Source of the DNA: Sphingobacterium sp.
GTDB lineage: Bacteria > Bacteroidota > Bacteroidia > Sphingobacteriales > Sphingobacteriaceae
Assembly: GCA_040392285.1 (NCBI GenBank)
Contig: JBEBWF010000008.1
Coordinates: forward strand, 15,962-79,961
Direction of reading: 5' to 3'
Length of the DNA stretch: 64,000 bases
Position 1 is the first letter of the stretch; each line of letters starts with the position of its first letter. Made by a program: the position numbers and the translations under genes. Of the stretch, positions 3,999-64,000 are shown one piece after another. The notes below the pieces were generated by a model, which was given only the letters and a program-made list of their open reading frames with translations, did no database searches and was not told the origin of the DNA.

Positions 3999-4007
3999 TT
4001 TATATTC

Positions 4008-4487: not shown

Positions 4488-4547
4488 GATTTATATTTTT
4501 TGATGAATACTCTGTAATAGAAGACAAACAAATATAATAAAAAACAG

Positions 4548-5330: not shown

Positions 5331-5446
5331 CTTTTATTTTATTGTAAATATGAGAGTTATACAAATATGGACAAATACACAGCTTCAGAATTAGGTTACT
5401 ATACCCATAAAACTGTATATTTACGACTAACATACTGCGTAAAGAT

Positions 5447-7147: not shown

Positions 7148-7182
7148 CATATCTTTGATAGGGTGCATCGGCTTTTAATTTT

Positions 7183-7190
7183 TAATTTTG
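7183..7190 (+). promoter_or_regulatory. Candidate -7 promoter box TAATTTTG
   Basis: TAnnTTTG match 20 nt upstream of the lptB ATG. Motif match only. Confidence 0.35.
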
Positions 7191-7209
7191 ACTTTTTACT
7201 TCACAATAG

Positions 7210-12858: not shown

Positions 12859-12863
12859 ATGGT

Positions 12864-15473: not shown

Positions 15474-15548
15474 CCCGAGTTTTTCTCGCTCATCACTTTT
15501 TACAACTGGTTTGTTGGTATTCTTTTTCATATTAAGGTAGTTTTATTT

Positions 15549-44600: not shown

Positions 44601-44609
44601 ATTACAACG

Positions 44610-46010: not shown

Positions 46011-46084
46011 GGAAAAACTCGTTCAGAAAAGCCACGATTCTATTTTTAAAGCCATATGGGTATTTATTACGTATATTTACTCCT

Positions 46085-47092: not shown

Positions 47093-47299
47093 TTCTTTTA
47101 CACCCGTTAATCGACACTTTTAGCCTGTTTTTTGGGTAATGGCGATAAAGTTGGCATTTTTGAACAACACGAAGTCTCTTTTGAATAAATCAACCGAAAG
47201 ACACACGAATTACGAAAACGTATCCGTAGTAAAAGTTGCAAAAATGTCTTTGTTATGTAATATATATTTAGCGGTAATTCGTATATTGAGGCACATTTT

Positions 47300-47307
47300 T
47301 ATATTTG
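47300..47307 (+). promoter_or_regulatory. Candidate -7 promoter box TATATTTG
   Basis: TAnnTTTG match 23 nt upstream of the gltA ATG. Confidence 0.35.
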
Positions 47308-47329
47308 TGTAAGTATACTATAGAAAATT

Positions 47330-48616: not shown

Positions 48617-48624
48617 TATCCTAT

Positions 48625-48656
48625 AAAAAATGGAAACTTGAAGGTTTCCATTTTTT
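48625..48656. terminator. Bidirectional terminator between convergent gltA and the S4-domain gene
   Basis: AAAAAATGGAAAC (loop TTGAAG) GTTTCCATTTTTT is a symmetric A-run/T-run hairpin. Confidence 0.7.
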
Positions 48657-49065
48657 ATGTCTCATTTTCCCACCAGTCTTCTTTCAAATCATCTATTTCA
48701 CGACGATCCTTCTTTGTAGGTCTACCGGATCCCCGGTCTCTTTTCAACACTGGCGCATGAAATACCGACTTAAAACCATACGTTTCTTCTACAGGAGTAT
48801 GGTCTTCATAAAATTGCACCGCTGTCTTAGCATCCACCCTTCGTTCCAATAGCCCCGTAACCAAAATTTCCTTCCGTTCGACACCTTTTTGAACCGTATA
48901 ACGCTCCCCTATCTTTACCACATACGAAGGCTTCACATTCTGACCGTTCAATTTTACCCGGCCAGCCCGACATGCTTCCGTAGCCAAACTCCGTGTTTTA
49001 AAAATACGGATTGCCCATAGGTATTTGTCTATCCGGAGTTTTTCAATCTCATTTGCCATAAACAA
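48655..49065 (-). CDS. RNA-binding S4-domain protein (Hsp15/HslR-like)
   Basis: The S4 motif IDKYLWAIRIFKTRSLATEACRAGRVKLNG is present. 136 aa. Confidence 0.85.
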   Translation of the reverse strand: MFMANEIEKLRIDKYLWAIRIFKTRSLATEACRAGRVKLNGQNVKPSYVVKIGERYTVQKGVERKEILVTGLLERRVDAKTAVQFYEDHTPVEETYGFKSVFHAPVLKRDRGSGRPTKKDRREIDDLKEDWWENET

Positions 49066-49165
49066 AATTAAAGATATAAAGTGAAATTATGAACCTCCAC
49101 CGAGATTAGTTCTCAATAAAAATCAGCATATTTGTAAGTCACAACAAATAAGAAGATAAAACAAA

Positions 49166-49987
49166 ATGGATTTACAAAAAGCTAAGAAACTCGTTGAGGA
49201 AGCTTGGGAAGACAGGCAACTTTTGGAATACAAAGAGTATTTCGAAACCATTCAGAGTGTTATCATGAAACTGGATACTGGCGATCTTCGCGTGGCAGAA
49301 CCTATTGGAGACCGCTGGCATGTAAACGACTGGATCAAGAAAGCAGTCATTCTGTATTTCCCTATTCGTGAGATGAAAGAAATCGAAAACAAACCTTTCG
49401 TCTATCACGACAAAATGAAATTAAAAACCAACTATAAAGCGCAAGGCGTTCGTGTTGTTCCAGGTGCTTCTGCCCGCTACGGTGCTTACTTAGCCAAGGG
49501 CGTGATCATGATGCCTTCCTACGTAAACATTGGGGCCTATGTCGACGAAGGTACGATGGTAGATACTTGGGCGACCGTAGGATCATGTGCACAGATTGGC
49601 AAGAATGTACATCTTTCAGGAGGTGTCGGTATTGGTGGTGTATTAGAACCCGTACAGGCGGCTCCGGTCATCATTGAAGATAATGTTTTTGTGGGTTCAC
49701 GTGCTATTGTCGTAGAAGGTATACGTGTCGAAACCGAAGCGGTATTGGGTGCGAATGTGGTATTGACGGCCTCTACAAAAATCATCGATGTCTCAGGTCC
49801 CGAACCTGTGGAATATAAAGGTTATGTCCCAGCTCGCTCTGTGGTCATTCCGGGTTCCTATACTAAAAAGTTTCCCGCAGGAGAATATCAGGTACCTTGT
49901 GCACTAATTATCGGCCAGCGTAAAGCATCAACCGATAAAAAAACATCCCTAAACGATGCTTTACGTGAGCATAACGTGGCGGTATAA
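49166..49987 (+). CDS. dapD: 2,3,4,5-tetrahydropyridine-2,6-dicarboxylate N-succinyltransferase
   Basis: Left-handed beta-helix hexapeptide repeats (GAYVDEGTMVDTWATVGSCAQIGKNVHLSGGVGIGG) are present. The 273-aa size is typical. Confidence 0.93.
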   Translation: MDLQKAKKLVEEAWEDRQLLEYKEYFETIQSVIMKLDTGDLRVAEPIGDRWHVNDWIKKAVILYFPIREMKEIENKPFVYHDKMKLKTNYKAQGVRVVPGASARYGAYLAKGVIMMPSYVNIGAYVDEGTMVDTWATVGSCAQIGKNVHLSGGVGIGGVLEPVQAAPVIIEDNVFVGSRAIVVEGIRVETEAVLGANVVLTASTKIIDVSGPEPVEYKGYVPARSVVIPGSYTKKFPAGEYQVPCALIIGQRKASTDKKTSLNDALREHNVAV

Positions 49988-49990
49988 CTG

Positions 49991-50572
49991 ATGGCACATA
50001 CTCCCATCAACAGCGAAGATATCCGCCAAGCCTTAGAAACGCTCAAGCGCGGAGGTTTGATCCTTTATCCAACCGATACCATTTGGGGTATTGGTTGTGA
50101 TGCAACCAATGCAGAAGCTGTAGAAAAAGTATTTGCCTTAAAAGGGCGCGATCAAGGCAAAAGCATGATCGTGCTCTTACATAACGACAACCAATTAGCT
50201 AGCTATGTACAGGACATACCGGAAGTCGCCTATGAATTGATCGAAGTGGCTGACAGGCCCTTGACCATCGTCTATTCAAAAGCGAAGAACCTCGCGCCAA
50301 ATGCGGTCGCAGCAGATGGGTCTATTGGTATTCGCATCGTTAATCACGCCTTCTGTCAGCAACTCTTGCAGCGTTTCAGGAAGCCCCTTATATCGACATC
50401 GGCAAACCTGAGTGGCATGCCGACGGCAAAGGATTTCGACGAAATCAGTCCTAAAATTAAAGAGGGGGTAGATTATATCGCAGAATTTGGGCAACAAGAT
50501 AAAAGTGATGGAAGGCCATCCGTCATCATGAAGTTAGATCCAAGCGGTAAGTTTGAATTTATCCGAAAATGA
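49991..50572 (+). CDS. tsaC: L-threonylcarbamoyladenylate synthase (YrdC/TsaC family)
   Basis: YrdC-domain motifs ILYPTDTIWGIGCDA and ISTSANLSG are present. 193 aa. Confidence 0.9.
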   Translation: MAHTPINSEDIRQALETLKRGGLILYPTDTIWGIGCDATNAEAVEKVFALKGRDQGKSMIVLLHNDNQLASYVQDIPEVAYELIEVADRPLTIVYSKAKNLAPNAVAADGSIGIRIVNHAFCQQLLQRFRKPLISTSANLSGMPTAKDFDEISPKIKEGVDYIAEFGQQDKSDGRPSVIMKLDPSGKFEFIRK

Positions 50573-50573
50573 C

Positions 50574-51413
50574 ATGAAAAGGTTCCAATCTCATCCTTCA
50601 CAAACTATCCGGGTCAAAAGTAAATTGCTGACATTCGAGCGTCCCCTTATTATGGGCATTTTGAATGTTACACCGGATTCTTTTTATGATGGTGGGCAAC
50701 ACGATACCGTGGAGAGAGCCCTACAACACACGCAAAGAATACTCGATGAGGGAGGCGATATCATTGATATTGGTGCTTTCTCTTCCAGACCCGGAGCAGC
50801 CCTGATTAGCAGCCAGGAAGAAATCGATCGATCGGTGCCGGTAATCGAACGTTTAATCCATGAATTCCCTCATGCCGTCTTTTCCATAGACACTTTTCGG
50901 GCAGATGTCGCTAAAGCTTGTATACATGCCGGAGCACACATCATCAACGATATCTCGGGAGGCAATCTCGACGAAGATATGTTTTCGGTCGTAGCCGAAC
51001 TGCAAGTGCCTTACATCCTGATGCATATGCGTGGCCGTCCGGACACCATGCAACAGCTTACAGATTATGACGATATCGCTACTGATGTAGCCGTAGAACT
51101 GGGGGAACGCATTGCTAAACTTCGCGCATTGGGAGTCCGGGATATTATTCTAGATCCCGGTTTTGGTTTTGCGAAGACCATAGCACAAAACTATGAGCTA
51201 TTATTGCGAGTAGATGAACTGCATTACTTCGGTCTACCGATACTGGGTGGCATTTCGAGAAAGTCCATGATCTATAAAAAACTCGGCATCACACCTCAGG
51301 AAGCCTTAAATGGAACTACGGCATTAAATACACTATTGCTTGAGCGAGGCGTACAGATTCTCCGCGTACATGATGTGAAAGAAGCCAGACAATTGGTGGA
51401 TATGTTTTTCTGA
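50574..51413 (+). CDS. folP: Dihydropteroate synthase
   Basis: IMGILNVTPDSFYDGG, DIGAFSSRPG and GISRKS motifs are present. The ATG at 50574, 2 nt after the tsaC stop, is preferred over the TTG at 50553. Confidence 0.93.
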   Translation: MKRFQSHPSQTIRVKSKLLTFERPLIMGILNVTPDSFYDGGQHDTVERALQHTQRILDEGGDIIDIGAFSSRPGAALISSQEEIDRSVPVIERLIHEFPHAVFSIDTFRADVAKACIHAGAHIINDISGGNLDEDMFSVVAELQVPYILMHMRGRPDTMQQLTDYDDIATDVAVELGERIAKLRALGVRDIILDPGFGFAKTIAQNYELLLRVDELHYFGLPILGGISRKSMIYKKLGITPQEALNGTTALNTLLLERGVQILRVHDVKEARQLVDMFF

Positions 51414-51433
51414 TACATCTTACCTCTACCCAA

Positions 51434-52639
51434 TTACCTCACAACTTTCTCGCCGTTCAAAAAACATTCATCCCTAAAATCCTGTGGTGTCTTACCCAGA
51501 TATTTTTTAAAAACCCGAAAAAAAGATGCTCTGGAATTAAAGCCGGACATTTCAGCAATATACTCGACCTTATAAAGTCGATAATCCTCATGGATCAGCA
51601 TCAACTTGGCTTCTTCAACACGATAACGATTTACCATCTCAAAAAAAGTCATCTTTAAATGTGTATTGATGAAAGCGGATAGCACTGCCGGACGGATATG
51701 TAGCAGCGCAGCGACATCATATAGTTTTAATCCTGTTTTGGTATGTATTTTTTCAATAATAAAAAGCTGTTCCAGTTTTGCTTGCAGATTGCTTTCATTA
51801 TTCCATTCATCGCTACGCCCTATTCGAGCTTTTTTTAATAGCTCGACCTCCTCTATAAAATGATTAAGCGGTGCCACAGCTTTAGCAAAAGTTTGGTATT
51901 CAGGCTTGTTAAATATCACATGGTATGACAACCCTTTATATAGCATAAAACCATACATCAAAAGGGATGCGACAGGCACAGCGATCAAATCCAGATAAAT
52001 ATGTGATTTTCCTGTGATGAGTACCGGTATGAAATAGGCTAACAACAGAAACACGTTCAGCGATAGGAGACATCGTAGAAATACTCTTTGCCATCTTACA
52101 GATATCTCCGCCTCATACATTCCTAACTCCTTCGCTCTGTCTTTGTACAGACTTACTCTTTTCCAGCCCACATATAGATAATAACAGAGGTGGATAAGCA
52201 ACAGCAGGGACATTGTATTGAAAAAGGGTTCTTCGCCTGCATGCACCTTGTCCATGACAAGCACTTTCTCCTTGTACGGAATCATCATATAATATCCGGC
52301 ACTCGAAAGAGTCAATACTGCCGGCACAAAATGCCACAAACTATGTAGTGCCGATCGGATGCTTTTGCCTTGTATCAGCGACAAATACACCAACAATACA
52401 GGACCAAATGTAAAATTGATACCACCATTTACCGAATTTAGAAACAGCAGTTCCGGTTTACCCAAAAAAATAGAAACAACATTATGGGCAACAGTAGACA
52501 CCGGATACAGCACCAAAATTGCGAGGAAAACATTCGCTTTTGCATTATTCTTCCTAAGCAGCAAACTGCCAGCCATTGTGAATAGTACAATAATTGACAA
52601 CAGATTTATTTGTAAGATAAGCGAATCTGAAATATGCAT
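51434..52639 (-). CDS. AraC family transcriptional regulator with a polytopic N-terminal membrane domain
   Basis: About 230 aa with 6-7 hydrophobic segments are followed by the AraC HTH pair (IAEMSGFNSRASFFRVFKKYLGKTPQDFR). Confidence 0.85.
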   Translation of the reverse strand: MHISDSLILQINLLSIIVLFTMAGSLLLRKNNAKANVFLAILVLYPVSTVAHNVVSIFLGKPELLFLNSVNGGINFTFGPVLLVYLSLIQGKSIRSALHSLWHFVPAVLTLSSAGYYMMIPYKEKVLVMDKVHAGEEPFFNTMSLLLLIHLCYYLYVGWKRVSLYKDRAKELGMYEAEISVRWQRVFLRCLLSLNVFLLLAYFIPVLITGKSHIYLDLIAVPVASLLMYGFMLYKGLSYHVIFNKPEYQTFAKAVAPLNHFIEEVELLKKARIGRSDEWNNESNLQAKLEQLFIIEKIHTKTGLKLYDVAALLHIRPAVLSAFINTHLKMTFFEMVNRYRVEEAKLMLIHEDYRLYKVEYIAEMSGFNSRASFFRVFKKYLGKTPQDFRDECFLNGEKVVR

Positions 52640-52949
52640 CGGATCTGTCTTGGTAAGTTATGCTAAGTATCTTCTCTATGTAGGTTAATAGTACGAAAAT
52701 AAAAAATAAAAAATCGAAATGCAAAACTTTGCACTTGTACAAAATCAGACGGCTCCACAGCATTTAAAAAACACTTATTTACAACTACTTAAGAAAAACT
52801 GGGACTACTTTATTGGTAAGTTGAGACAAGCTTGTCGCTCTTTTATAGCTTATTTATTCTGTTTTATTGGTTTATTAGACTATTCATAAAATTCAGACAA
52901 TCCAGAAAATGTCGATATTTTTTAGAGACCACGCTAATTTATAAAAACC

Positions 52950-53990
52950 ATGAATACATTAATCAAAAAGTTAACAAGCTCTGCATTCCTTATTATCGCT
53001 ATCAGCTTCGTTAGTACCCTACAGGCGCAACAACCTACTGAAAAAGAAGTCAAACAGGCATTTGCGCCAAAAGGAACGCACCGCGCGCCGTTCAAAAAAG
53101 CCACCGAAGTAGCACTCACAAGCGTTAATTTACAATTCAAGCTAGCCACCCGTCAGGAACAGGAAAAACGTAAGGTAGGCAATGTGATTACTTGGGGTTT
53201 CCTCGAAGGTATAGATGATGCTCTCTTTCAGGAAATAACAGACGAATATTACAAAAATCTGGAGGCAAAGCTTAGAGCAAACGGTTTTTCGCTGAACAAC
53301 GGCTACAAAGATCATAAATCTTATCAAAAACTAGTAGAAAGTAACACTGATCTGCAAAGGGAGACAAATAAAAAAAATTGGGGAGCGTCCAAAATTTTCA
53401 CGGCAAACAATGCACCATATATCGAGTATCCCACGGGAATGATGGGAGCTCACGCTTCATTAGGCAACGACCTAAAAATACCTGTTGGACAGCTGTTTAT
53501 TACCATAGATTTTATCGAAATTATACAAAATATCAATCGCGGGCTTTCGAGTTTTACGTTAATGGGCAACAGTGACCGTACGGACAAATTCGAAACTGAT
53601 ATGCGACCTATTGTCCGCATCGAGGGTATCACAGCTGCATCTATGGGCAAACAGTTCAAGGGTGACGGCACGTATGCTAAATTCACAGGCGACAATTGGA
53701 GTTTTTGCAATGCCATCCTTCAGCCCGGGGTTACAATCACATCAGACGTTACGTACGCCAATGATGTAGAGACAGCAGAAGGAATACCCGAGAGCATGAA
53801 GAAATTTAAAAGTGCAGTGGTCGGGGACCTGGTAGGCATTTTTTCACGTGGTACCGTCAAAAGCGGACGTGGCAATCTGGAAGCGACCTACACCATTCAA
53901 GCTAATCCACAGGCTTATAAAAAAGCTGTACTAAATGCGTTAGACAAATACAACGATTATCTGATCGCTTATATCAAAGCGAATAATTGA
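52950..53990 (+). CDS. Secreted hypothetical protein
   Basis: Signal peptide MNTLIKKLTSSAFLIIAISFVSTLQAQQ is present. Clean 346-aa ORF, first gene of a tightly spaced co-directional cluster. I recognise no family. Confidence 0.6.
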   Translation: MNTLIKKLTSSAFLIIAISFVSTLQAQQPTEKEVKQAFAPKGTHRAPFKKATEVALTSVNLQFKLATRQEQEKRKVGNVITWGFLEGIDDALFQEITDEYYKNLEAKLRANGFSLNNGYKDHKSYQKLVESNTDLQRETNKKNWGASKIFTANNAPYIEYPTGMMGAHASLGNDLKIPVGQLFITIDFIEIIQNINRGLSSFTLMGNSDRTDKFETDMRPIVRIEGITAASMGKQFKGDGTYAKFTGDNWSFCNAILQPGVTITSDVTYANDVETAEGIPESMKKFKSAVVGDLVGIFSRGTVKSGRGNLEATYTIQANPQAYKKAVLNALDKYNDYLIAYIKANN

Positions 53991-54021
53991 TCCACGATGG
54001 ATTAAAAATTATTTTCCGCTT

Positions 54022-55335
54022 ATGAAAGCTATACACATACTCCTCCTCCTGCTATTGGTATCCTGCGGCAAGAACGAAGTTCCGGGTGAAACAGGAGATG
54101 ACACTCCCAGCACCTCCGATCCTGCACTGAGCAACAGTGGCAGCACCCGACTGAACCAGCCTATACCTAATTTTGAGTGGATTGGTGCATACAATGATCA
54201 TATCTATGGTTGTGATGTGTACACCGGTACTTATCTGGCCCGCTTCAGCACTGTCGACCGTAAAATGGATATGCTTAAAAAATATGGTTCAGCAGAGACC
54301 TTTCAGGCGATAGCCCATTCGGTAGACTCAAAGGGTAATATCTATTACTACGCTAAAGCAGGCGGGGGAAATGTAGGACTTATGAAAATAGAAGCTAATG
54401 GGAATGTACAATGGAAGAAAAAACTAAAAATGACCTTAAGCCCCTACAATGATCCAAGTGATATGCAACCTGTTGCCGTAAAACATATCAACGGCTACCT
54501 TTGGGCCTTATCAAGTCTGTACTTATTCAAGGTAGATCCGGAAAATGGTGAAGTCCTGAATACAATTGGAATTAGCAGTACCGGGGAGCGTTGGACGCCC
54601 GGGCAGGATATTATCAAAGCAGGCGACAATATTATGGTACAGATGGGGGGCGGGCAATTGCATTTTCATATCCTGCGAACTTCCGACTTGAAACCCCTTA
54701 AATCCGTGAAAACTCCTTTCACGATATTTCCCACTTCAGGATTTCCGACTAATACCATTCTAGATGTAGCAGCCAATCGTTTTTTTGCCGTAACACATTA
54801 CCGTGAACAATCCTCTTTATTTCCCAGAGGAGTCCTCATTGAATTTGATTCCGATGGGAAAATCCTGAACAGTGCTATCCTAAAAGACGGGTTGGACCAG
54901 TTTGAAGTAACCCGTATGCACCGTGACAAAGCGGGGAACTATGCCGTTGCTTTTAATACAATTATCGAGCTGGGCAGCAACTTAAAAACAAAAGATGTAT
55001 TAATATTCAACAAAGATCTGGAGCTGATCCACAAAGTAAGCCTCCCACCGAACCTGAAAAGATCAGCCATTTCGTTCAATATATCTATGGTAGCTTTAGT
55101 CAATGAAAACAACTTTAACAATACAATCATCGAATGGGTAGACACCAAAAATCCAGGTTGCAAATCCAACAGCAGATTAACGAATATCAAACTCGAAACG
55201 CTGGCTTTTAATGCGGCAGAAGTAAACACGGATGTACAGCCTTTCACTTCTTTAATGAGTTATGCTGGGAGCGAAGATATGACCTATACTGTGGAGGATA
55301 TAAACTTTAGCCAGACTGTTTCGGCATGCAATTAA
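54022..55335 (+). CDS. Hypothetical lipoprotein, beta-propeller-like
   Basis: A lipobox-like N-terminus (LLLLLLVSCGKNE) is present. Repeated short beta-strand/turn segments (NGNVQWKK, NGYLWAL, ENGEVLN) are reminiscent of PQQ/BamB-like propellers. Fold not verified. Confidence 0.6.
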   Translation: MKAIHILLLLLLVSCGKNEVPGETGDDTPSTSDPALSNSGSTRLNQPIPNFEWIGAYNDHIYGCDVYTGTYLARFSTVDRKMDMLKKYGSAETFQAIAHSVDSKGNIYYYAKAGGGNVGLMKIEANGNVQWKKKLKMTLSPYNDPSDMQPVAVKHINGYLWALSSLYLFKVDPENGEVLNTIGISSTGERWTPGQDIIKAGDNIMVQMGGGQLHFHILRTSDLKPLKSVKTPFTIFPTSGFPTNTILDVAANRFFAVTHYREQSSLFPRGVLIEFDSDGKILNSAILKDGLDQFEVTRMHRDKAGNYAVAFNTIIELGSNLKTKDVLIFNKDLELIHKVSLPPNLKRSAISFNISMVALVNENNFNNTIIEWVDTKNPGCKSNSRLTNIKLETLAFNAAEVNTDVQPFTSLMSYAGSEDMTYTVEDINFSQTVSACN

Positions 55336-55342
55336 TCCGTTT

Positions 55343-56413
55343 ATGATGAAAGTATTTATTAGCATCGATCTTCTGCCCAACAACTATATAGGACTACTCC
55401 TGTTTCTTTGTCCTCTACTATGGGCGTGTCCCGGAAAAAAAGAAGATCCGCAGCCCGATAAACAACCTACTGCCGAAGAAGTCATGACCGATTGGGCAAA
55501 GGAGGTGAGTTTTGGAAAAATCAGCGTTTCACCCGGAACATGGAGCTACAAAGATATTATTTTCAATAAGGACAACGCTGCTTTGCTGGACAACGATAAT
55601 CGGATATTCGTTTCCTATGACAACGGCGACAGCTGGGTCGAAAAACTGAAAATCACTGGGGCAACACTGAAAAGCATTGCACTGAAACCAGACGGCGAGA
55701 AACTGTTTATCGGTGGTGTTAGTGTAGGTCCCTACACCTTTGGGGCAAAATTCTGGGTGTACCATACACCAAAAAATGGCACCATTAGCCTAGATTACGA
55801 TGGCGAAGCTATTCTTGCACAGCTCAACGATCCGATTAACCACGATTTTCAACGTACGCAATGGAATGACGATGGCTCGGTCTACGCTAGTTTTGGTCGC
55901 ACGACCAAAATGGATGGATTTTTCGGAAACATCACACCGGATGGACGGAAGACTTTTAATCGTCGTACTCCTTCCTTTTCACGTATAGATGACAGAGAGC
56001 CTGCACGGCAGCCTAGCCATTGTGCGGGTTTTTATATACAGAACAATAGCGCAACGACTGTTTTGTGTGTCTACGAATATAATCCTACTGCTATGATGGG
56101 TATCGTTTCTCCCTATCAATCGGGCAGTAAAGGGGGTGGCAACAGTTGGTTGCGCCTCGCCCTCTATTGGAAAGCCGACCTAGTGTACCATATCGGACAG
56201 GATCTGACGGGCAAACACGCCGTTTATGTGTCGCAGGCCAACAGGCTGTTTTACGATGGCAAATACCTTATCAACCACAAAAACCTGCAAGGCGAACTGC
56301 AATGTGCTTCGATAGATAACAACGGCTACCTGTGGGTGGGTACCAGCAACGGCCTCTACAAAGCCACCAAGAAGATGCCGGAGCTGCCGAAAACGGTGTT
56401 TGACAAGGAATAA
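55343..56413 (+). CDS. Hypothetical lipoprotein with a BNR/Asp-box motif (propeller-like)
   Basis: A hydrophobic N-terminus ends in LLWAC. One Asp-box-like motif is SYDNGDSW. The C-terminal NGYLWVGTSNGLYK resembles propeller repeats. Confidence 0.6.
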   Translation: MMKVFISIDLLPNNYIGLLLFLCPLLWACPGKKEDPQPDKQPTAEEVMTDWAKEVSFGKISVSPGTWSYKDIIFNKDNAALLDNDNRIFVSYDNGDSWVEKLKITGATLKSIALKPDGEKLFIGGVSVGPYTFGAKFWVYHTPKNGTISLDYDGEAILAQLNDPINHDFQRTQWNDDGSVYASFGRTTKMDGFFGNITPDGRKTFNRRTPSFSRIDDREPARQPSHCAGFYIQNNSATTVLCVYEYNPTAMMGIVSPYQSGSKGGGNSWLRLALYWKADLVYHIGQDLTGKHAVYVSQANRLFYDGKYLINHKNLQGELQCASIDNNGYLWVGTSNGLYKATKKMPELPKTVFDKE

Positions 56414-56438
56414 TGGAGAATTGATTAATAATACAGCT

Positions 56439-58550
56439 ATGAAAACCTTACAATCAGTACTACTGTCAATCGTCTTTGCCCTGCTTGCGGTGGCAAGCTA
56501 TGCGCAATCACCTATCAGCTCCTGCCGCAGGTCCTTTGACCCCGAAGGAAAAGGTATAAGCCGCGAACAACATGACGAAGCGTACCGCCAAATATATATG
56601 CAGTTCAGCAAGTTCCGAGAAAAAAGCAAGTCAGGTCTCGACCCCGGCGGCATAGAAATAAAAAGCAGGAACCCCAAATACAGCAAGATGTACCTCTACG
56701 CCGATTACATCTTGTCTCACGAGATGAAACCGGACATTAACATGGTCATCGACCTGAAGTCGCCCAATAGCGGTAAGCACGCCTACCTATATATGGCTTA
56801 TGTAGAGCTTGCCCCCGATGCGCAGGGCAACAAAAAAGAACTGGTACTGTTCTTTTTCTCCGGCTACAACATCAGGGCAAAGAAAAAGTACAACACAGAC
56901 ACCAAAACCGCATATGTGAAAGAAATAGCGGCGGACATAGACAAAAATCCCATCGTGGTGGCAGAAACGCAACCCGATGTTGTCCTTGAGGTGGACGAAT
57001 ACGCCAGCGGCGGAAGCCCGAAAATAAAAGCTTTCGGCACCACCACCTATATCTACGACATCAACAGCCTGCACCCCAACAAAATCCCGCTCACCATCGG
57101 GAAGCTGTTCCAGTACAAATCCGGCTTAAAGAGCATCAAAAATTATGAAACAGCAATGCTCGTCAACTACAGCCAAAACGGCAAAACTACCGGTACAATC
57201 GAATATATTCCAAAAGAAGGTGGCAAAGCTTTGGTACTCGAACACATCAAAAAGTTCGATGAAAACGGACAGCTTACGGAAGCAGGTTTTGAAATCAGTA
57301 CCTCTGTGAAGACAGGCGAAAAAATTGTGGGAACCTGGAATAATTCCACAAAAATAAACATCTATACCGACAAAAAAACACTTTCATTCGGAATGGACTT
57401 ACACAACGGCAAGACCTATTTCACTACTGTCTTCAGCTTGCCCGCAGGCATAGAAAAAAATTGGAAGAATGATGTTCGCAAGTTCAACATCGAACCAGAC
57501 CTGCTGGAGGAGCTGCGCCAAAACCTGGGCAGAGAACCCGTAGAAGACCGGGAACAGTTTCAGGAGTTTCTGACCAATTTTCAGCGGCTCAATGAATACG
57601 TCATCATAGACGAGACAGCAAAAAACATACACGGTATGCCTGTGAAATATATCTACAAAGGCACCTACAACAAGGACGGCCAACCCCACGGCTGGGGCCT
57701 AATGTATGCCGTCAACCACTATGATGACGAATACTACATCGGGCAGTTCAAAAATGGCATGCCCGATGGTCTGGGCATACGACAAGATTTTAAGCTAGAC
57801 AAGCCCGAAATCAGGTACAGTAGTCGGGGTATGCACGTCGGAAACACACTGGTATACGGAACACGAATAGCACGCCCGGCCCCCGTGTATGACCCTAACT
57901 ACGCATCCAACAACGGATATTACCAACCTCACGGATACTATGTAACCCACGGCGATTTCAGGCAGGGTGAGCTCAACGGCAAGGGAAGCCATATCTGGTA
58001 TCAAGGATTTGACAATGGCATAGGAGACTTGTCCTATGGAAATTTCCAAAACGGCAAGTTGCACGGCACAGGGAGCTATTATGACAATGATGAGAAGAAA
58101 GTCGGCGAATTTGAAAACGGCAATTTTTTGTCGGGCAACAGCGTAACCGATAAAATGTATGACAACAACTTTTACCCTGGCGCAGTGGTGCTGTACAATG
58201 GTAAAAAATACGTAATTATGAATAAAGCAAACGGCCGGATTTATTTAGACGGAATAGATGTAGCCAGCACGGCAAATCTATCGCTGACAGGCGAACGTTC
58301 TGTACAAAGAAAAGTCTGCAATATTTGCAACGGAACCGGATTTTTAAACCCGACCAGCAATACCGTTTTCTCTGGTGTAACCCAAACACAAAAAAGCTAC
58401 CAAACAGGCCCCACAGGTTACGTCGTGTGGGAAAAAACCACGACTACCACTACAGCCCCGGTTACTACACACCGGACGAACAGATGTACAGCCTGTACCG
58501 GAGGATCGTCAGGAAATGCCCCTGTGCCGCTAAAATCAGACCAAAGGTGA
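56439..58550 (+). CDS. Secreted MORN-repeat protein with C-terminal CxxCxGxG zinc-ribbon-like motifs
   Basis: Signal peptide MKTLQSVLLSIVFALLAVASYAQS is present. MORN-like repeats include GQPHGWGLMY, GMPDGLGIRQ, GELNGKGSHIW and GKLHGTGSYY. The C-terminal motifs are CNICNGTG and CTACTGG. The ATG at 56439 is preferred over the TTG at 56400. Confidence 0.7.
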   Translation: MKTLQSVLLSIVFALLAVASYAQSPISSCRRSFDPEGKGISREQHDEAYRQIYMQFSKFREKSKSGLDPGGIEIKSRNPKYSKMYLYADYILSHEMKPDINMVIDLKSPNSGKHAYLYMAYVELAPDAQGNKKELVLFFFSGYNIRAKKKYNTDTKTAYVKEIAADIDKNPIVVAETQPDVVLEVDEYASGGSPKIKAFGTTTYIYDINSLHPNKIPLTIGKLFQYKSGLKSIKNYETAMLVNYSQNGKTTGTIEYIPKEGGKALVLEHIKKFDENGQLTEAGFEISTSVKTGEKIVGTWNNSTKINIYTDKKTLSFGMDLHNGKTYFTTVFSLPAGIEKNWKNDVRKFNIEPDLLEELRQNLGREPVEDREQFQEFLTNFQRLNEYVIIDETAKNIHGMPVKYIYKGTYNKDGQPHGWGLMYAVNHYDDEYYIGQFKNGMPDGLGIRQDFKLDKPEIRYSSRGMHVGNTLVYGTRIARPAPVYDPNYASNNGYYQPHGYYVTHGDFRQGELNGKGSHIWYQGFDNGIGDLSYGNFQNGKLHGTGSYYDNDEKKVGEFENGNFLSGNSVTDKMYDNNFYPGAVVLYNGKKYVIMNKANGRIYLDGIDVASTANLSLTGERSVQRKVCNICNGTGFLNPTSNTVFSGVTQTQKSYQTGPTGYVVWEKTTTTTTAPVTTHRTNRCTACTGGSSGNAPVPLKSDQR

Positions 58551-58571
58551 AAAAGTAAAAATTTAGATAAT

Positions 58572-58603
58572 TTGAAAATGATTGTTTAAAGTTACTGATA
58601 ACT
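58572..58603 (+). repeat. Intergenic motif copy 1: TTGAAAATGATTGTTTAAAGTTACTGATAACT
   Basis: It begins 21 nt after the stop of the MORN gene. It is nearly identical to 60596..60627 (2 mismatches by eye). Confidence 0.85.
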
Positions 58604-58691
58604 GTACGGGCTGCCTTTGTGGCTGCCCAACAAAAGGGCCGCCAAATATAAATTAAGGATTGCCACAAGGGTGATCCCTACTAATAAAAAA

Positions 58692-59609
58692 ATGAAACAA
58701 CTCCGTCACATAGACATCCTGACTATATTGGTCATCACCATCTGGGGTATACTCCGGAGGGAGGTGACCGTATTCTATATCATTTACCTATTCTGGTTTC
58801 AGGAAGCCATCCGGACATTGGTTGACTTCATTTATCTGTTGTTGCACAAAAAAACCTTAGCAGATAGAAAACTGCTCCTTGCGCAGACGTTCGGCGCAGG
58901 TTTTCTGCTGTTTATCTATCTGGTATTTATCGTCTTGCTGTTCGGTTTTATGCTGAATTGGGAACAATCTGAGCTCCTTGGCGCAAATGCGCGGATGCTT
59001 TTCTTCCAAAACACGTTTTTTAACGTCAATATCCTACTGTTTCTAATAGAATACACCTATTTCCGCATTAAAGTGGAGGACAATAATCTGCAAATCCAGA
59101 CCTTCAACCGCCGCCATATCATCCTGCATATTTCCATTATCGTAGGTGCATTCATCCAGCTCGTCGTTGTGCAGCATTATGATATGACAGGCCTGTGGGG
59201 TTCCGTGGCGGTGATTGCCCCTTTTTTGTTGCTGAAAATATGGATTGACAAATCGGAAAATAATCGCCACGAAGTCACAAATAAAACCTTAGTGCCTTGG
59301 GGAATTAATGCTGAAAGAAATCGAACAAGAAATAAAAAAATGAAAATAACAAAAAACGACATGCTGTTTACGCTCGCACTTGTATTTGCCCTATGGTTTA
59401 CCACTACGGGTATTTTCTGGGTGTATTGGACGGCATTGTTCGTGGCCTATCCCTTTGGTATCGCTTCACTTTTTATCTGGCAGAATATCAGGAAAGACGG
59501 GAGGAAAAGAAATGCCATAATTCCAGTCATACTCATTGCAGGCTTGTTGCTTTCATTGGGGATGCTGTTGCCCTCGCTCATAAACAGGTTAGGAATAGAC
59601 TGTTGTTGA
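58692..59609 (+). CDS. Polytopic membrane protein, unknown function
   Basis: About 8 hydrophobic segments. The ATG at 58692 (MKQLRHIDIL) is preferred over the TTG at 58617. A basic linker and an internal ATG at 59340 split it into two hydrophobic blocks. Confidence 0.6.
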   Translation: MKQLRHIDILTILVITIWGILRREVTVFYIIYLFWFQEAIRTLVDFIYLLLHKKTLADRKLLLAQTFGAGFLLFIYLVFIVLLFGFMLNWEQSELLGANARMLFFQNTFFNVNILLFLIEYTYFRIKVEDNNLQIQTFNRRHIILHISIIVGAFIQLVVVQHYDMTGLWGSVAVIAPFLLLKIWIDKSENNRHEVTNKTLVPWGINAERNRTRNKKMKITKNDMLFTLALVFALWFTTTGIFWVYWTALFVAYPFGIASLFIWQNIRKDGRKRNAIIPVILIAGLLLSLGMLLPSLINRLGIDCC

Positions 59610-59633
59610 TATGGATAACTAACTTTTGGCACA

Positions 59634-60590
59634 ATGAAGAAAATAATCTATTTCACATGTTATCTGTTGGCACTGTCCAATATAGGGTATGCACAGCAGA
59701 CCGCTGGAGATTGGTACCGCAAAGCACAGGAAGCAAGAACTGCGGGAGACCACAGCAATATGCTGCACTATCTGAACGAAGCCGTAACACTTGGCCATAC
59801 CGATGCGACGAACAGTCTCGGCTATCTGTACCACAAAGGCAAAGTAGTGCCGGAAGACTTGGGCAAAGCTATGGAGCTATACAATATGGCCGCCAAAAAA
59901 GGCAATCCCGACGCACAGTTCAACCTATCGCTACTCTATAAGTACGGAATGGGCACTGCCGAAAATCCCGAAAAAGCATTTTACTGGCAACATCTGGCTG
60001 CCCAAAACGGTATTACCGAGGCTATGTCCAATCTAGGCGAAGATTATTACAGCGGCTACGGAACGACACCCAACGACAGCCTTGCATTTTTATGGATGTC
60101 CCGGGCTGTCTCCCATGACCTGAGAGGAGCTTACAGCAAACTTGGTTTTTTCTATCAATACGGTATAGGTACACCTATCTCGATAGACAGTGCCATCAGC
60201 TATTACCAAAAAGGTATAGCTAAAGACGACCATTATGCGATGCAAAATCTCGCCAACCTGTACTACACAGGTTCAGGTGTGGCAAAAGATGCGGAAAGAG
60301 CTTTGCACTATTACAGCCTTGCCGCCGACAAAGGTAATATCGACTGCGTATATTATAAAGCGACGATGTTATACGATGGTCTCGGTACAGTAAAGGATAT
60401 ACCAGGAGCATTCCGACTGTATCACAAAGCCGCATCGGCAGGACAAGTCGGAGCTATGTACGAAATAGGGATGGCCTATTACAACGGGGATGGCGTGGAT
60501 CAGAATCGAACGGAAGCCCTATACTGGCTCCGCAAAGCCGCAAAAGCCGGACATCAAAAAGCCATCACTTTTGTGGGGAAAGAGGATTAA
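59634..60590 (+). CDS. Secreted Sel1-like (SLR) tetratricopeptide repeat protein
   Basis: A signal peptide is present. There are about 7 Sel1 repeats, for example A..LG.LY..G.GV..D..KA...Y..AA..G...A. 318 aa. Confidence 0.85.
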   Translation: MKKIIYFTCYLLALSNIGYAQQTAGDWYRKAQEARTAGDHSNMLHYLNEAVTLGHTDATNSLGYLYHKGKVVPEDLGKAMELYNMAAKKGNPDAQFNLSLLYKYGMGTAENPEKAFYWQHLAAQNGITEAMSNLGEDYYSGYGTTPNDSLAFLWMSRAVSHDLRGAYSKLGFFYQYGIGTPISIDSAISYYQKGIAKDDHYAMQNLANLYYTGSGVAKDAERALHYYSLAADKGNIDCVYYKATMLYDGLGTVKDIPGAFRLYHKAASAGQVGAMYEIGMAYYNGDGVDQNRTEALYWLRKAAKAGHQKAITFVGKED

Positions 60591-60594
60591 AGAA

Positions 60595-60627
60595 TTTGGA
60601 AATGATTGTTTAAAGTTACTGACAACT
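60595..60627 (+). repeat. Intergenic motif copy 2: TTTGGAAATGATTGTTTAAAGTTACTGACAACT
   Basis: It begins 4 nt after the stop of the Sel1 gene. See copy 1. Confidence 0.85.
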
Positions 60628-60735
60628 AACCACTAATAACTAACAACGATGAAAACAAAAACTACTATATTGACCGCAAAGGCGAAAAAATTAAATAGAA
60701 AAGCGATTCCATAAAAAACTGGACGACCTGTAAAA

Positions 60736-61326
60736 ATGAACCATTCGGAAACATACCATTCACAAGCCTACAACCTGCGGGATCTGCTGACATCGGCTAC
60801 ATGGGAATTACATACGGACCATTTCCTCCGCACCTCGAAGAGACATATCACAGCGCAATTTCCCTATTCTCGGATAGATGCCATACGCCTGTGCTTCCAC
60901 ATGGGCGGCAGAGGTTCTGCCGCAAAATTCTGCTGTTATTTTTCCATAAACGGTCATTGGAACAATAAACAGATGCTGAGCAGTGCCAACAGCGACACCA
61001 AAACCGAAGATTATAAGACGTACCGCAACTTTGTTGTCGAATTTATCCGTCGGATCAAACAGAGCAATCCTGCAGTTCGGCTCATTATCGGACATAGCCA
61101 GACTTCCTGGTTGTTTTATCTGGCTACTGTTGTCTTTTTGTTGTGTGTGCCTATTTTTACCTACAGGCAACATATCTCAAGCGGTAAAGAAAGTTTCTGG
61201 ATCGGTCTGGTTTTATTGCTGCTGAGTAGTCCATTGGTGGCAAGCTTGGTTAAGTATTTTCCCAAAGCGCTCCAATGGGGGGAGACTATCCCCGAAAGCG
61301 TATTACCGACTCCAAAAACACCGTAA
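60736..61326 (+). CDS. Hypothetical membrane protein (soluble N-domain plus 2 C-terminal TM segments)
   Basis: 196-aa ORF. Hydrophobic segments are WLFYLATVVFLLCVPIF and FWIGLVLLLLSSPLVASLV. I recognise no family. Confidence 0.5.
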   Translation: MNHSETYHSQAYNLRDLLTSATWELHTDHFLRTSKRHITAQFPYSRIDAIRLCFHMGGRGSAAKFCCYFSINGHWNNKQMLSSANSDTKTEDYKTYRNFVVEFIRRIKQSNPAVRLIIGHSQTSWLFYLATVVFLLCVPIFTYRQHISSGKESFWIGLVLLLLSSPLVASLVKYFPKALQWGETIPESVLPTPKTP

Positions 61327-61327
61327 T

Positions 61328-61810
61328 ATGAAAAAAAGAACCAAACAAAAGTACGCTGTAGCCTATATCAACCGACGGACGCCAACATTGTATATGGTAA
61401 CCCTCATCACCGTAGCATTGTCCATATTCACTTTTTATATGATCTTCTTCGATCTGGACAATTTCTTTATAGAATACTCTTCCAAGCTGTCCGGTATCTT
61501 TTGGATGATCTACTTTGTGATTTTCGGCAACATCCTATTGATATGCATGTTATGGTTGAGCGGTCGCTACATCCTGAAAATTGAAGAAGCAGAAGAAGGA
61601 TTTGTATATATAAAAACATGGTCCATTATCGGTCTGCACCGGACAAAAAGATACCCCAAAGCAATCACCACCTCCGGCACTTATTACCACGGCAGAGCGA
61701 ATCTGCCCAGCACCCCCGTAGTCAATGCCCCTTTTTCGGTCTTGCGTACCCCGAGCGGAAAAAGATTGATATTGGATGAAGCCGGAGGCAGCATACCAAA
61801 AACCATCTGA
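61328..61810 (+). CDS. Hypothetical membrane protein (2 N-terminal TM segments)
   Basis: 160-aa ORF that starts 1 nt after the previous stop. TM segments are LYMVTLITVALSIFTFYMIFF and IFWMIYFVIFGNILLICMLWL. Confidence 0.5.
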   Translation: MKKRTKQKYAVAYINRRTPTLYMVTLITVALSIFTFYMIFFDLDNFFIEYSSKLSGIFWMIYFVIFGNILLICMLWLSGRYILKIEEAEEGFVYIKTWSIIGLHRTKRYPKAITTSGTYYHGRANLPSTPVVNAPFSVLRTPSGKRLILDEAGGSIPKTI

Positions 61811-61846
61811 TTTTCCGACAATGCTATAAAACACAACGAGACTGTC

Positions 61847-61880
61847 TCTTCTATTTTTGAGACAGTCTCGGTTGAAGTCT
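61847..61880. terminator. Perfect 12-bp inverted repeat, putative bidirectional terminator
   Basis: CGAGACTGTCTC (loop TTCTATTTTT) GAGACAGTCTCG lies between convergent genes ending at 61810 (+) and 61933 (-). Confidence 0.7.
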
Positions 61881-61932: not shown

Positions 61933-63051
61933 CTATTCTCCATAAAAGTTGATATCGCCATAAACTGCATAGGCATTAGTTGCTCCACGGACAAAATCAA
62001 CACGCACGTAACGCGCTGTATGGGTCTTCGGCAATAGATACAATTGCTCACCATCTATGGTCCGATTAAATTCCTTTACAAAGACGGGATTAGGATCTGC
62101 CTGTGCTGCATTTTTATACATATAGGGTGTAGTGTACACAACACCATCCTCACTAAAAGAAATATTGATATCCCAGGAAGAGTTTTCTCCATCTCCCCAT
62201 TTTCTGTGAATCGTTAGCGCGGAAAACCGGCGTATTCGATTAAAATCTACAATCACATGTTGTCCTGTCGGCGCCCCGCTAACGGTCACATATTGACTTG
62301 AGCGCCAATAGGTGGAGGGGTCATTGTCCAAGAGATCTATTGCAGATAGCCCACTTTGCGTAGAGGAAGCCGTAATGTTCCAATTATCATTCTTTAATTT
62401 GGAAAAACCTGCCAAAGGAGTAACGGCAAACGTCTTTACACTGGTACTAAATGCATCTGCATATAAAACATCGGCCGTAAATGTATACACTCGGTTCAGA
62501 TCCAAGCCCCGCAATGAATATTCCTGCCTTAAACTATTGGCATTTATTTCCAATTCCTGATCATCATATCTCAAACGGATAACTGCCGGAATAGCCTGTG
62601 GATTTTCCCAGAGTACACGCACCCCTCCATCGCCACCGTTGATCACAATGCTATTCAGCATATCTAACAATTCATCTTCTGGGTCTGATGGAGCAATTTT
62701 CCGACTCTTTACGCTTTGTTCCCGTGCAACCTTACTGTTTGTAGAAGAAAAAGCTTGTATGTAAAACTTATAAACCTCCGTATCCGGCAACATAATCTCC
62801 ACCGAACTACTTCTTTCATTCACCGCTTCCGTAATCGTAATCTTTTCTCCTTCTATTGTATACGAAATCTCTACTTTGTCGTACAGCCGATCATCTGGAT
62901 TTTCCCAAGACAACAGAACACCTTCTGCGTCTGAGGTGGCGATCAGCTTCTCTACCCCTGGAATAGATGTATCTACGACCATAACCTCTTCATCTTTACA
63001 CGCTCCGAGAACGAGAATCGTGAACAAAAAAACTACTATATATTTTTTCAT
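61933..63051 (-). CDS. Surface lipoprotein with Fn3-like repeats and a C-terminal F5/8 type C (discoidin) domain, PUL-associated type
   Basis: A lipobox (LVLGACKDEE) is present. Two LSWENP / VLWENP Fn3-like modules are present. The C-terminal discoidin-like region is NWNITASS...LLDNDPSTYWRS. Confidence 0.8.
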   Translation of the reverse strand: MKKYIVVFLFTILVLGACKDEEVMVVDTSIPGVEKLIATSDAEGVLLSWENPDDRLYDKVEISYTIEGEKITITEAVNERSSSVEIMLPDTEVYKFYIQAFSSTNSKVAREQSVKSRKIAPSDPEDELLDMLNSIVINGGDGGVRVLWENPQAIPAVIRLRYDDQELEINANSLRQEYSLRGLDLNRVYTFTADVLYADAFSTSVKTFAVTPLAGFSKLKNDNWNITASSTQSGLSAIDLLDNDPSTYWRSSQYVTVSGAPTGQHVIVDFNRIRRFSALTIHRKWGDGENSSWDINISFSEDGVVYTTPYMYKNAAQADPNPVFVKEFNRTIDGEQLYLLPKTHTARYVRVDFVRGATNAYAVYGDINFYGE

Positions 63052-63056
63052 AATAA

Positions 63057-64000
63057 CTAGTCAATTTTAATAAACTGAACTTTCATACTCTTGATATCCA
63101 ATATAATCTGATATCGACCTGTTTCTCCAGGCTGTACACGCCATTTCCAGTCCGGACTATTGCCAGCTGCTAGAACATCTAAATCCGTTTGAATAGACGC
63201 TTCTGCTTTCCATGGCCTCAACTGCAATGTCGCCGCTGAAAAATTTGCCTCCGTCGAAAACTTAAATTCCCCACCTGTCGTACCCACCACTTGTGTCAAG
63301 AATAAGGTGATCATACCTATATTGGGGCTGTACACATCCCATTCCAAAGGAAAGGGAGCTCCTGCAAAAGAACCAGCCGGGGTAGCTCCTCCTCCTATAT
63401 AGATATTCAAATAAGGAACTTCCTGTATATCGATTCTTTGGTTGATCCGATCCAACACAATTGCATAAAAACCTGCCTCATCTATCGTAAAATCTTCACC
63501 GGATTGATCCTCAGAATCCATAAGTACAATACCATCTCCATCTCCTTTACCATATGCCGGATAAGGCTGATCCATGATTGTCGCTATCTTGAACGAACCC
63601 GGATTCAATTTACCACGCCAAGAATAGATCTCTCCAGCCACGACCTCCCTCATCTCGATCATGTTAGCTCCTTCGGTTGCATTGCCATAGATAAATATAG
63701 AACTAGACTCAATATGGTATGGAGTCACCGATACAGGGCGTGTCGAATACAAAGGTTTGATAAACTTTTCTTCCGAGCTTACTTGTGCAATAACCCGAAC
63801 ACTGATTGATACTGCATCGGATTCGATTCTTTTCCAATGGCTACGGATCAATTTCTCCAGTTCATCATGAGTATACGTCTTGAAATACACTCCTTCCGGC
63901 ATCTCGATAGCTGGAATGGCGGTTGTAAAATCATTCTCCGTTACATCCATTTTGAACAAGTATTTGACCGGATAATGTGCCTCTATCTCTTTCAGTGGCT
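63057..64000 (-). CDS. SusE/SusF-like surface glycan-binding protein, partial (N-terminus beyond window edge)
   Basis: The reading frame stays open upstream of the ATG at 63959 to the window end, so the gene is probably truncated by the window. It sits 5 nt upstream of the discoidin lipoprotein gene, as in PUL accessory genes. The family call is weak. Confidence 0.45.
   Translation of the reverse strand, partial: PLKEIEAHYPVKYLFKMDVTENDFTTAIPAIEMPEGVYFKTYTHDELEKLIRSHWKRIESDAVSISVRVIAQVSSEEKFIKPLYSTRPVSVTPYHIESSSIFIYGNATEGANMIEMREVVAGEIYSWRGKLNPGSFKIATIMDQPYPAYGKGDGDGIVLMDSEDQSGEDFTIDEAGFYAIVLDRINQRIDIQEVPYLNIYIGGGATPAGSFAGAPFPLEWDVYSPNIGMITLFLTQVVGTTGGEFKFSTEANFSAATLQLRPWKAEASIQTDLDVLAAGNSPDWKWRVQPGETGRYQIILDIKSMKVQFIKID

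Follow-up and report, generated by a model that had tools for sequence, protein, structure and literature searches.

The 64-kb stretch of Sphingobacterium DNA analysed here (hereafter the window) carries on its plus strand a cluster of eight co-directional genes, named G1 to G8 in order, which lies between a divergent regulator of the AraC family and a perfect hairpin, and whose interior differs between near-clonal strains and has been exchanged between species. An earlier reading of this sequence (the original prediction) had described the cluster as a possible orphan immunity or envelope-defence island, and its eight genes and all seven of its gap sizes (31, 7, 25, 141, 24, 145 and 1 nt from G1 to G8) were matched exactly when the open reading frames (ORFs) were re-read by their coordinates. 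All eight products had been called exported or membrane proteins, and signals were indeed found in each, namely N-terminal signal peptides in G1, G4 and G6 (sequence reading and hydropathy), lipoboxes in G2 (LVSC) and G3 (LWAC; sequence reading), and seven, two and two hydrophobic segments in G5, G7 and G8, respectively (hydropathy scan). However, G7 and G8 are membrane-anchored and not exported, as their soluble domains lack a signal peptide and a cytoplasmic location is predicted for them. The closing hairpin has the perfect 12-bp arms described for it (61837-61848 and 61859-61870; folding energy -22.9 kcal/mol), but it spans 61837-61870, 10 nt to the left of the 61847..61880 given earlier; it lies between convergent genes, has its T-rich tail on the minus strand and is likely a bidirectional terminator.

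The window proteins group with entries of Sphingobacterium lumbrici (exact and 90% cluster look-ups), synteny with an S. lumbrici contig was confirmed, and the source run is an insect metagenome. As such, the host belongs to Sphingobacterium, close to S. lumbrici, and to another order than the Bacteroidales, in whose terms the locus had been framed. The absence of any recognised enzyme, transporter or mobility gene was reproduced, as no such domain was matched in the cluster by Pfam, NCBIfam, PADLOC or PHROGs: PHROGs gave repeat-level matches for G4 and G6 and nothing else, NCBIfam returned generic Sel1/TPR models only, with scores far under their cut-offs, and the PADLOC matches were at noise level. 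According to the Pfam, NCBIfam, fold and PDB searches, the cluster products are binding-type repeats without a catalytic domain.

Evidence of variability comes from a sister strain, represented by a metagenome-assembled genome (MAG; loci L038/L039), which is collinear with the window at 98.5% DNA identity over 42950-56431 and 98.9% over 58687-60606. In this strain an unrelated gene (L039:13495-15141) for a secreted 548-aa protein with a signal peptide and weak WG and Sel1 matches takes the place of G4 and the spacer downstream of it, with exchange borders 18 nt past the G3 stop and 5 nt ahead of the G5 start. G7 is absent from the sister strain, and its G8 is a mosaic that matches the window protein exactly over the N-terminal two thirds and is S. 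lumbrici-like in the C-terminal third. In addition, synonymous differences between the two strains number 2 in 1307 codons of the housekeeping flanks vs 29 in 1757 codons of G1, G2, G3, G5 and G6. The suggestion that the second half of the cluster is made of exchangeable cassettes is thus borne out between near-clonal strains, with G4 replaced, G7 present or absent and G8 both allelic and mosaic. No sequence similarity between the 548-aa protein and G4 was detected by tblastn (E<=1e-3), yet the former ends in CVYCYGSGK-(~50 aa)-CHRCNGTGK where G4 has CNICNGTG-(~50 aa)-CTACTGG, in the same arrangement after an SH3-like stretch, which suggests that a shared C-terminal module is carried on different repeat bodies.

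Comparison with S. lumbrici points to exchange across a species boundary. The genes flanking the cluster have a DNA identity of 73% and are saturated at synonymous sites (proportion of synonymous differences, pS, 0.79-0.84), whereas pS is 0.63 in G1, 0.48 in G2, 0.28 in G3, 0.030 in G4, 0.12 in the N-terminal part of G5, 0.60 in G7 and 0.79 in G8; for G4 the synonymous divergence dS is 0.031. A tract on the plus strand at 56521..58320 reaches 99.3-99.7% DNA identity to S. lumbrici (sliding identity), which we read, from the sequences compared, as evidence of recent inter-species exchange. The same raised identity to S. lumbrici is present in G3 and G5 of the sister strain, and therefore an older exchange covered G3-G5, and a very recent second exchange brought G4 into the lineage of the window or removed it from the other lineage. 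The S. lumbrici-type order G3-G4-G5, with a G4 that is more than 99% identical, is also present in two unrelated metagenomes (X3 and X5; one from bovine gut, the other from another source). An assembly chimera behind the identity of G4 is unlikely, given the junction sequences and a source run that gave one contig at uniform depth in which a second strain was not seen. The ratio of nonsynonymous to synonymous divergence (dN/dS) is below 0.5 in all genes, and because purifying selection thus extends throughout the cluster, we take its genes to be functional.

The variable genes are held in a recurring frame, which consists of the divergent membrane AraC gene and G1 at one end and of G8 as the last gene at the other. 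This frame was found with four different interiors in five lineages from two orders, namely this species, S. lumbrici, Pseudopedobacter beijingensis (L019), an Agriterribacter MAG (L031) and a further MAG (L043). The regulator of the window (51434..52639, minus strand, 401 aa) has N-terminal hydrophobic segments and a C-terminal HTH_18/HTH_AraC domain (Pfam HTH_18, 55 bits), and that of L043 is 78% identical to it. The window interior consists of G2-G7, that of L031 of G3, a 386-aa lipoprotein, a DUF6498 gene, a small two-transmembrane (2-TM) gene and G7, and those of L019 and L043 of an unnamed 268-aa protein, a lipocalin-like protein and a DUF6252 lipoprotein. In every case in which G1 has a window-type membrane AraC gene as its divergent neighbour, the last gene of the cluster is a G8 homologue. 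A link to the neighbouring AraC regulator, which had been raised as an alternative at the outset, is therefore supported by gene order, as the divergent AraC-G1 pair and the closing G8 recur in the five lineages. Among 29 genome loci of G1, the gene is almost always divergent either from a TPR sensor kinase with a LuxR-type response regulator or from an AraC gene, and the downstream genes vary; G8 was absent from all of the approximately 19 kinase-linked loci with enough flank. A different combination is present in another organism (L001-L003), with a WG-repeat protein, a G4 homologue, a 2-TM gene, a G7-like gene, DUF6498, a G8 homologue and another AraC gene. In L001 and L002 the module of G4 homologue, DUF6498 and G8 stands beside a tyrosine integrase (split in L001:6122-8274) and a LinB-like nucleotidyltransferase, and in L001 it may ride on a mobile element.

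Base composition divides the cluster in a similar way. As had been judged by eye, the cluster is richer in GC than the window (0.444 vs 0.415), and at third codon positions (GC3) the shift is confined to G3-G8, which have values of 0.50-0.56 vs 0.410±0.035 for 33 other window ORFs and are thus 2.4 to 4.3 standard deviations high, with ordinary values in G1 (0.42) and G2 (0.45). The proposed division of the block into two parts is upheld in that G1-G2 look native and G3-G8 look acquired and variable, but composition places the break at ~55.3 kb and not at 56.4 kb. S. lumbrici shows the same contrast, with a GC3 of 0.31-0.43 in the flanks and 0.45-0.58 in the cluster, and because the contrast is present in both species, both hosts probably acquired cluster DNA from a GC-richer donor. 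In the Agriterribacter MAG, GC3 is 0.47-0.62 across G1, G3, DUF6498, the 2-TM gene, G7 and G8.

G4 (56439..58550, plus strand), which fills the exchanged slot in the window, encodes a secreted protein of 703 aa with a signal peptide, read from an ATG within a longer ORF that opens with TTG. Its beta-rich N-terminal domain of ~330 aa is followed by MORN repeats (residues ~386-570) and then by an SH3-like segment, the C-terminus carries a CxxCxGxG...CxxCxGG pair, and four cysteines are invariant. The description of G4 as a secreted MORN-repeat protein holds: although the Pfam match is marginal (PF02493, 23.1 bits vs a cut-off of 22.5), the MORN beta-hairpin fold is clear, with an AlphaFold model at a predicted local distance difference test score (pLDDT) of 77 and a Foldseek probability of 1.0 to the MORN arrays of MORN1, radial-spoke proteins and junctophilins. 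The family is small, with 18 clusters among 5.8 billion. That the C-terminus might be a widespread sorting or anchoring module attached to many N-termini was ruled out, as only 10 of 1.84 billion proteins represent the SH3-like and four-cysteine (Cys4) module, and almost all of these are of the G4 family. At columns ~640-700 of alignment A3 (G4 residues ~570-635), a distant homologue (P0032, 55-57% overall) has a near-identical stretch, DKMYDNNFYPGAVVLYNGKKYVIM...GRIYLDGIDVASTANL, in common with the window and S. lumbrici proteins only, which suggests intragenic recombination within the family. A solitary homologue with 70% identity (L007) lies amid defence-type genes, namely AAA_21 with RloB, and a UvrD-like helicase with DUF2290 (2385-7552; 14337-15245); an Ntox23-domain gene is located 2 kb from it.

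The polytopic membrane protein expected downstream of G4 is G5 (58692..59609, plus strand, 305 aa), in which a DUF6498 part (residues 1-197) and a small 2-TM protein (residues 214-299) are joined in frame. The DUF6498 match (PF20108) covers residues 11-187 at 30.6 bits vs a cut-off of 23.7. In L001, S. lumbrici (L006) and L031 each half has a gene of its own, and the order of the two varies; the sister strain retains the fusion (dN/dS 0.16). G6 (59634..60590, plus strand, 318 aa) is, as anticipated, a secreted Sel1-repeat protein, with a signal peptide and seven solidly matched repeats (PF08238, 175.3 bits); its best PDB matches are generic Sel1 proteins, and it has no clear counterpart in S. 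lumbrici, where a different, broken Sel1-like stretch is found (a tblastn match of 62 residues at 27%). The last two genes encode the two small 2-TM proteins of the original prediction. G7 (60736..61326, plus strand, 196 aa) combines, by hydropathy, a cytoplasmic N-terminal domain with two C-terminal transmembrane helices, is 70.6% identical to its S. lumbrici counterpart and 24% to that of L031, and forms 2 clusters in the protein collection. Public gene callers start G7 at Met80, giving a 117-aa protein, but the 196-aa form is probably right because protein conservation with S. lumbrici and L031 extends over the upstream 79 codons (60736-60972). G8 (61328..61810, plus strand, 160 aa), the constant last gene of the frame, is highly allelic (76% identical in the sister strain and 54% in S. 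lumbrici) and has an N-terminal transmembrane hairpin and a cytoplasmic TMEM70-like domain. Its match to TMEM70/TMEM186/TMEM223 (PF06979, cut-off 22) reaches 14.1 bits in the window, 17.5 in the sister allele and 24.5 in the L043 homologue. A metagenome scan with the G8 alignment gave four loci, two of them new, and the window's own G8 had nothing on record in the contig index.

Two of the seven gaps contain copies of a 41-nt direct repeat on the plus strand that are 90% identical to each other, with none expected by chance in 64 kb. Copy 1 (58563..58603) directly follows the G4 stop inside a 125-nt stretch without an equivalent in S. lumbrici, and copy 2 (60587..60627) overlaps the G6 stop. 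The repeat core, AATTTGGAAATGA, also occurs in the sister strain after the slot gene and after G6, where it supplies the G8 start codon; the motif was not found in the other species compared. From its placement, the repeat appears to mark cassette borders in this species only.

At the other end of the cluster, G1 (52950..53990, plus strand, 346 aa) is a secreted protein with a signal peptide that belongs to a conserved unnamed family of 70 clusters, 47-98% identical, in Sphingobacteriia and Chitinophagia. Its predicted structure (AlphaFold2) has a pLDDT of 80.7, and a fold search against PDB and viral structures returned no significant match; the candidates HpaA, CsgG and tail-tube proteins (best E about 0.1, TM-score below 0.3) were set aside as not significant. 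G2 (54022..55335, plus strand, 437 aa) is a beta-rich lipoprotein that was restricted, among 44 fetched loci, to this species and S. lumbrici. G3 (55343..56413, plus strand, 356 aa), the first gene with a foreign GC3 (0.50), is a lipoprotein in which the SYDNGDSW Asp-box noted earlier is located, and a gene that neighbours G1 in the Agriterribacter MAG, from a different taxonomic order, is 75% identical to it. The two lipoproteins had been called propeller-like, of which a weak trace is left in matches below threshold only (DUF5050 in G2, E=0.02 in Pfam; Reg_prop, 19 bits vs 20.4). When profiles of G1 and G4 and the single sequences of G2 and G3 were searched against PDB sequences, nothing apart from MORN was matched. 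Membership of G2, G3, lipoprotein c4 and the 386-aa lipoprotein of L031 in one family was rejected, since hhalign found c4 and the L031 protein weakly related over their full length (probability 36%) and the rest unrelated.

The presumed control region is the divergent intergenic region between the AraC gene and G1 (52640..52949), an AT-rich stretch of 310 nt with 30% GC, which is the least conserved stretch in comparison with S. lumbrici (58% identity) and in which the Bacteroidetes-type promoter box TAnnTTTG was not found. Scans for sigma-70 promoters and terminators gave no excess over shuffled sequences, and an Rfam scan of the whole window gave no match. Internal promoters could be present in the 141- and 145-nt gaps. 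Gene content also differs at the borders of the locus. Downstream, the window continues (61933-63959) with a gene for a DUF4945 and F5/8 type C protein and a SusE/F-like gene, both convergent with the cluster, and the sister strain has a 103-nt remnant of the F5/8-type gene (L039:17585-17687) followed by metG, as in S. lumbrici. Upstream, S. lumbrici has a DUF4920 gene (L006:3676-4110) between a Sua5/YrdC-like gene and folP that is missing from the window (49991-51413) and from the sister strain.

In its evolution the block resembles a conflict locus, and it is better described as a rapidly exchanging part of the genome for envelope proteins than as a fixed operon. Given these observations, we tentatively favour the possibility that the locus encodes periplasmic or surface binding proteins and their inner-membrane partners, a cassette-variable set under AraC control that acts at the envelope. 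The divergent membrane AraC gene and G1 at one end, and the hairpin-anchored, cytoplasm-facing G8 at the other, would form a conserved frame around a variable interior filled by recombination with exported binding-type proteins (the lipoproteins G2 and G3, G4 and G6) and inner-membrane proteins (DUF6498, the small 2-TM protein and G7). The AraC sensor would switch on the co-directional genes as one transcribed unit, ligand binding by the exported beta- and alpha-repeat proteins would take place in the periplasm or on the cell surface, and the membrane proteins might anchor these partners or relay a signal. Whole-gene swaps would then change what is bound. Because variants are exchanged between strains and species, a slot is replaced like for like and each variant is under purifying selection, we consider that diverse binding specificities may be selected for, as they are in loci of defence or immunity. 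Here we speculate that the most likely selective agent would be something that attacks or docks at the envelope, for example the toxin of a competitor, a bacteriocin or a phage, and that the locus might work like an immunity or shielding system outside the known ones.

Several observations weigh against this proposal. G1 mostly occurs without the rest, so that the eight genes are no obligate system, and solitary G4 homologues are found in unrelated contexts (L004, L005, L007 and L008). The TAnnTTTG box was not found upstream of G1, G5 or G7, and dN/dS carries no sign of positive selection. No cluster family has an assigned function, a search of the literature on DUF6498 found no papers, and no similarity to immunity, toxin or defence families was detected in the cluster. 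In addition, recombinase, transposase, type VI secretion system (T6SS), Rhs and toxin genes were not found among the scanned window ORFs of >=200 aa, a scan that rests on sister-strain annotation for 42.9-52.6 kb.

A possible, if somewhat doubtful, alternative is a housekeeping-type envelope or stress regulon under an AraC sensor, with a role such as the maintenance of lipoproteins or the outer membrane, in which the variation would reflect neutral turnover of dispensable passengers. The conservation of G1 across two orders, always beside a regulator, the tight gaps without a strong internal plus-strand terminator and the purifying selection throughout all agree with such a regulon. However, neutral turnover fails to explain why G4 is 99.5% identical across species with saturated flanks, and it leaves unexplained both the approximately tenfold excess of synonymous differences inside the cluster of near-clonal strains and the clean like-for-like swap of G4 for a secreted protein with the same Cys4 C-terminus. 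The families of G4, G7 and G8 are also extremely rare, unlike core envelope functions. A more specific form of the envelope-binding proposal, which we regard as speculative and rather improbable, is that the locus represents an undescribed, recombinase-free type of cassette exchange in Sphingobacteriia and Chitinophagia, in which exported MORN, WG or Sel1 proteins with Cys4 ends, and small membrane partners with them, would be swapped by homologous recombination within the AraC/G1/G8 frame to give strain-specific protection of the envelope against the toxins of competitors or phages, in an immunity-like manner but unrelated to the known immunity families.

It is unlikely that the cluster is a strict orphan-immunity island in the sense of acquired interbacterial defence of the recombinase-associated type (rAID), AID-1 or heterogeneous polyimmunity loci, in which each of G4-G8 would neutralise a specific T6SS or polymorphic toxin. 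The co-oriented array, its turnover at strain level, its transfer between species and the repeated intergenic motif fit such an island, as do the G4 homologue near an Ntox23-domain gene in L007 and the module beside a tyrosine integrase in L001-L003. Nevertheless, the immunity-type products proposed for the second half could not be recovered, as Imm, SUKH, SuFu and MORN_2/YwqK gave no match at E<=1 in Pfam and NCBIfam and none at E<=0.1 in PADLOC. Filing the cluster under rAID or polyimmunity fails, since none of its products matched a family of immunity, toxin, defence or mobility proteins, and recombinase, T6SS and Rhs genes were not found among the scanned window ORFs of >=200 aa. The genes reach 703 codons vs the ~100-300 of rAID clusters (PMC12247911), the motif occupies two of seven gaps and is species-specific, G7 and G8 are predicted to be cytoplasm-facing, a cognate toxin family is not known, and the host lies outside the Bacteroidales. 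The premise that MORN and Sel1 proteins are recurrent immunity proteins was not supported either, since Zhang et al. 2012 (PMC3482391) list Sel1 as a repeat of Sec-exported toxins, not as an immunity family, and do not mention MORN.

Quite unlikely is an effector-immunity module, in which G4 or the 548-aa protein would be a Sec-exported antibacterial protein and DUF6498, the 2-TM protein, G7 and G8 its immunity set. Such a module would be consistent with a large, swappable secreted protein followed by small membrane proteins, and with the adjacency of a G4 homologue, 2-TM, G7-like, DUF6498 and G8 genes in L001-L003 as well; the Bacillus subtilis membrane PH-domain proteins YdbS and YdbT contribute to bacteriocin resistance. 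However, G4 shows only MORN and beta-hairpin repeats and a Cys4 knuckle, without a pore-forming or enzymatic domain, G5 and G6 are unchanged when G4 is swapped, which is unexpected of cognate immunity, and four G4 homologues are without such neighbours. That the cluster supplies surface glycan-binding lipoproteins to neighbouring polysaccharide-utilisation genes is highly implausible, for although a DUF4945 and F5/8 type C gene and a SusE/F-like gene lie downstream and G3 has an Asp-box, the orientation is convergent, the cluster abuts metG in S. lumbrici and the sister strain, and it contains no SusC/SusD or glycoside hydrolase gene.

Interbacterial and anti-phage defence is far less charted in soil- and insect-associated Bacteroidota than in gut Bacteroidales, and the locus offers a concrete, testable case, with a slot that holds different secreted proteins in near-clonal strains, a gene that has only just passed between species and a regulator of its own. 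Should the slot genes alter the outcome of competition or phage infection, new protein families with a role would be defined (G1, G4, G7, G8, DUF6498 and the Cys4 module), along with a novel form of organisation for exchangeable envelope defences; otherwise the locus would still illustrate cleanly how recombination drives the turnover of accessory envelope genes. Elsewhere in the window, 10846-17303 holds genes for a PKD/DUF7619/DUF7849 protein (670 aa) and for a TPR and CHAT (caspase-like) protein (869 aa), with a convergent minus-strand gene for a 584-aa OmpA-family protein, and 32966-36367 encodes a large protein (1134 aa) in which HEAT repeats are combined with two 3-keto-disaccharide hydrolase domains, adjoining a GFO/IDH/MocA oxidoreductase and a ROK regulator.

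Compared with characterised proteins, the central part of G4 is predicted by its model to form a MORN beta-hairpin array like those of MORN1, junctophilins and radial-spoke proteins, from which it differs in being Sec-exported and in its N-terminal beta domain and C-terminal SH3-like and Cys4 module. G6 shares seven canonical Sel1 repeats and a signal peptide with the secreted Sel1-like proteins HcpC, EsiB, AlgK and SEL1L, but the likeness is at the level of the repeat, without orthology to a characterised member. The YwqK-type MORN immunity protein is short and cytoplasmic, carries the MORN_2 variant repeat and has an adjacent toxin gene, whereas G4 has 703 aa, a signal peptide, PF02493 only and no toxin neighbour. 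Polymorphic toxin systems include heterogeneous polyimmunity loci with roughly 85 immunity superfamilies (PMC3482391), and the cluster resembles these in its structurally unrelated small to medium proteins in one orientation and in its lateral exchange, but none of those superfamilies was detected in it and no toxin cassette or trafficking gene lies nearby. The rAID clusters of Bacteroidales are defined by a tyrosine recombinase, co-oriented short immunity genes of ~100-300 codons and conserved intergenic motifs (PMC12247911). With these, the cluster shares a co-oriented array in Bacteroidota, gene content that varies between close strains, identical genes across species and a repeated intergenic motif. 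It differs from them in lacking a tyrosine recombinase and known immunity domains, in having the motif in only two gaps, in its gene length of 160-703 codons, with five of eight genes over 300 (346, 437, 356, 703 and 305), in products that are mostly exported or membrane-embedded and in its host, a Sphingobacterium from an insect-associated metagenome. In addition, it is set apart from rAID clusters by a dedicated AraC regulator and by its constant end genes G1 and G8.

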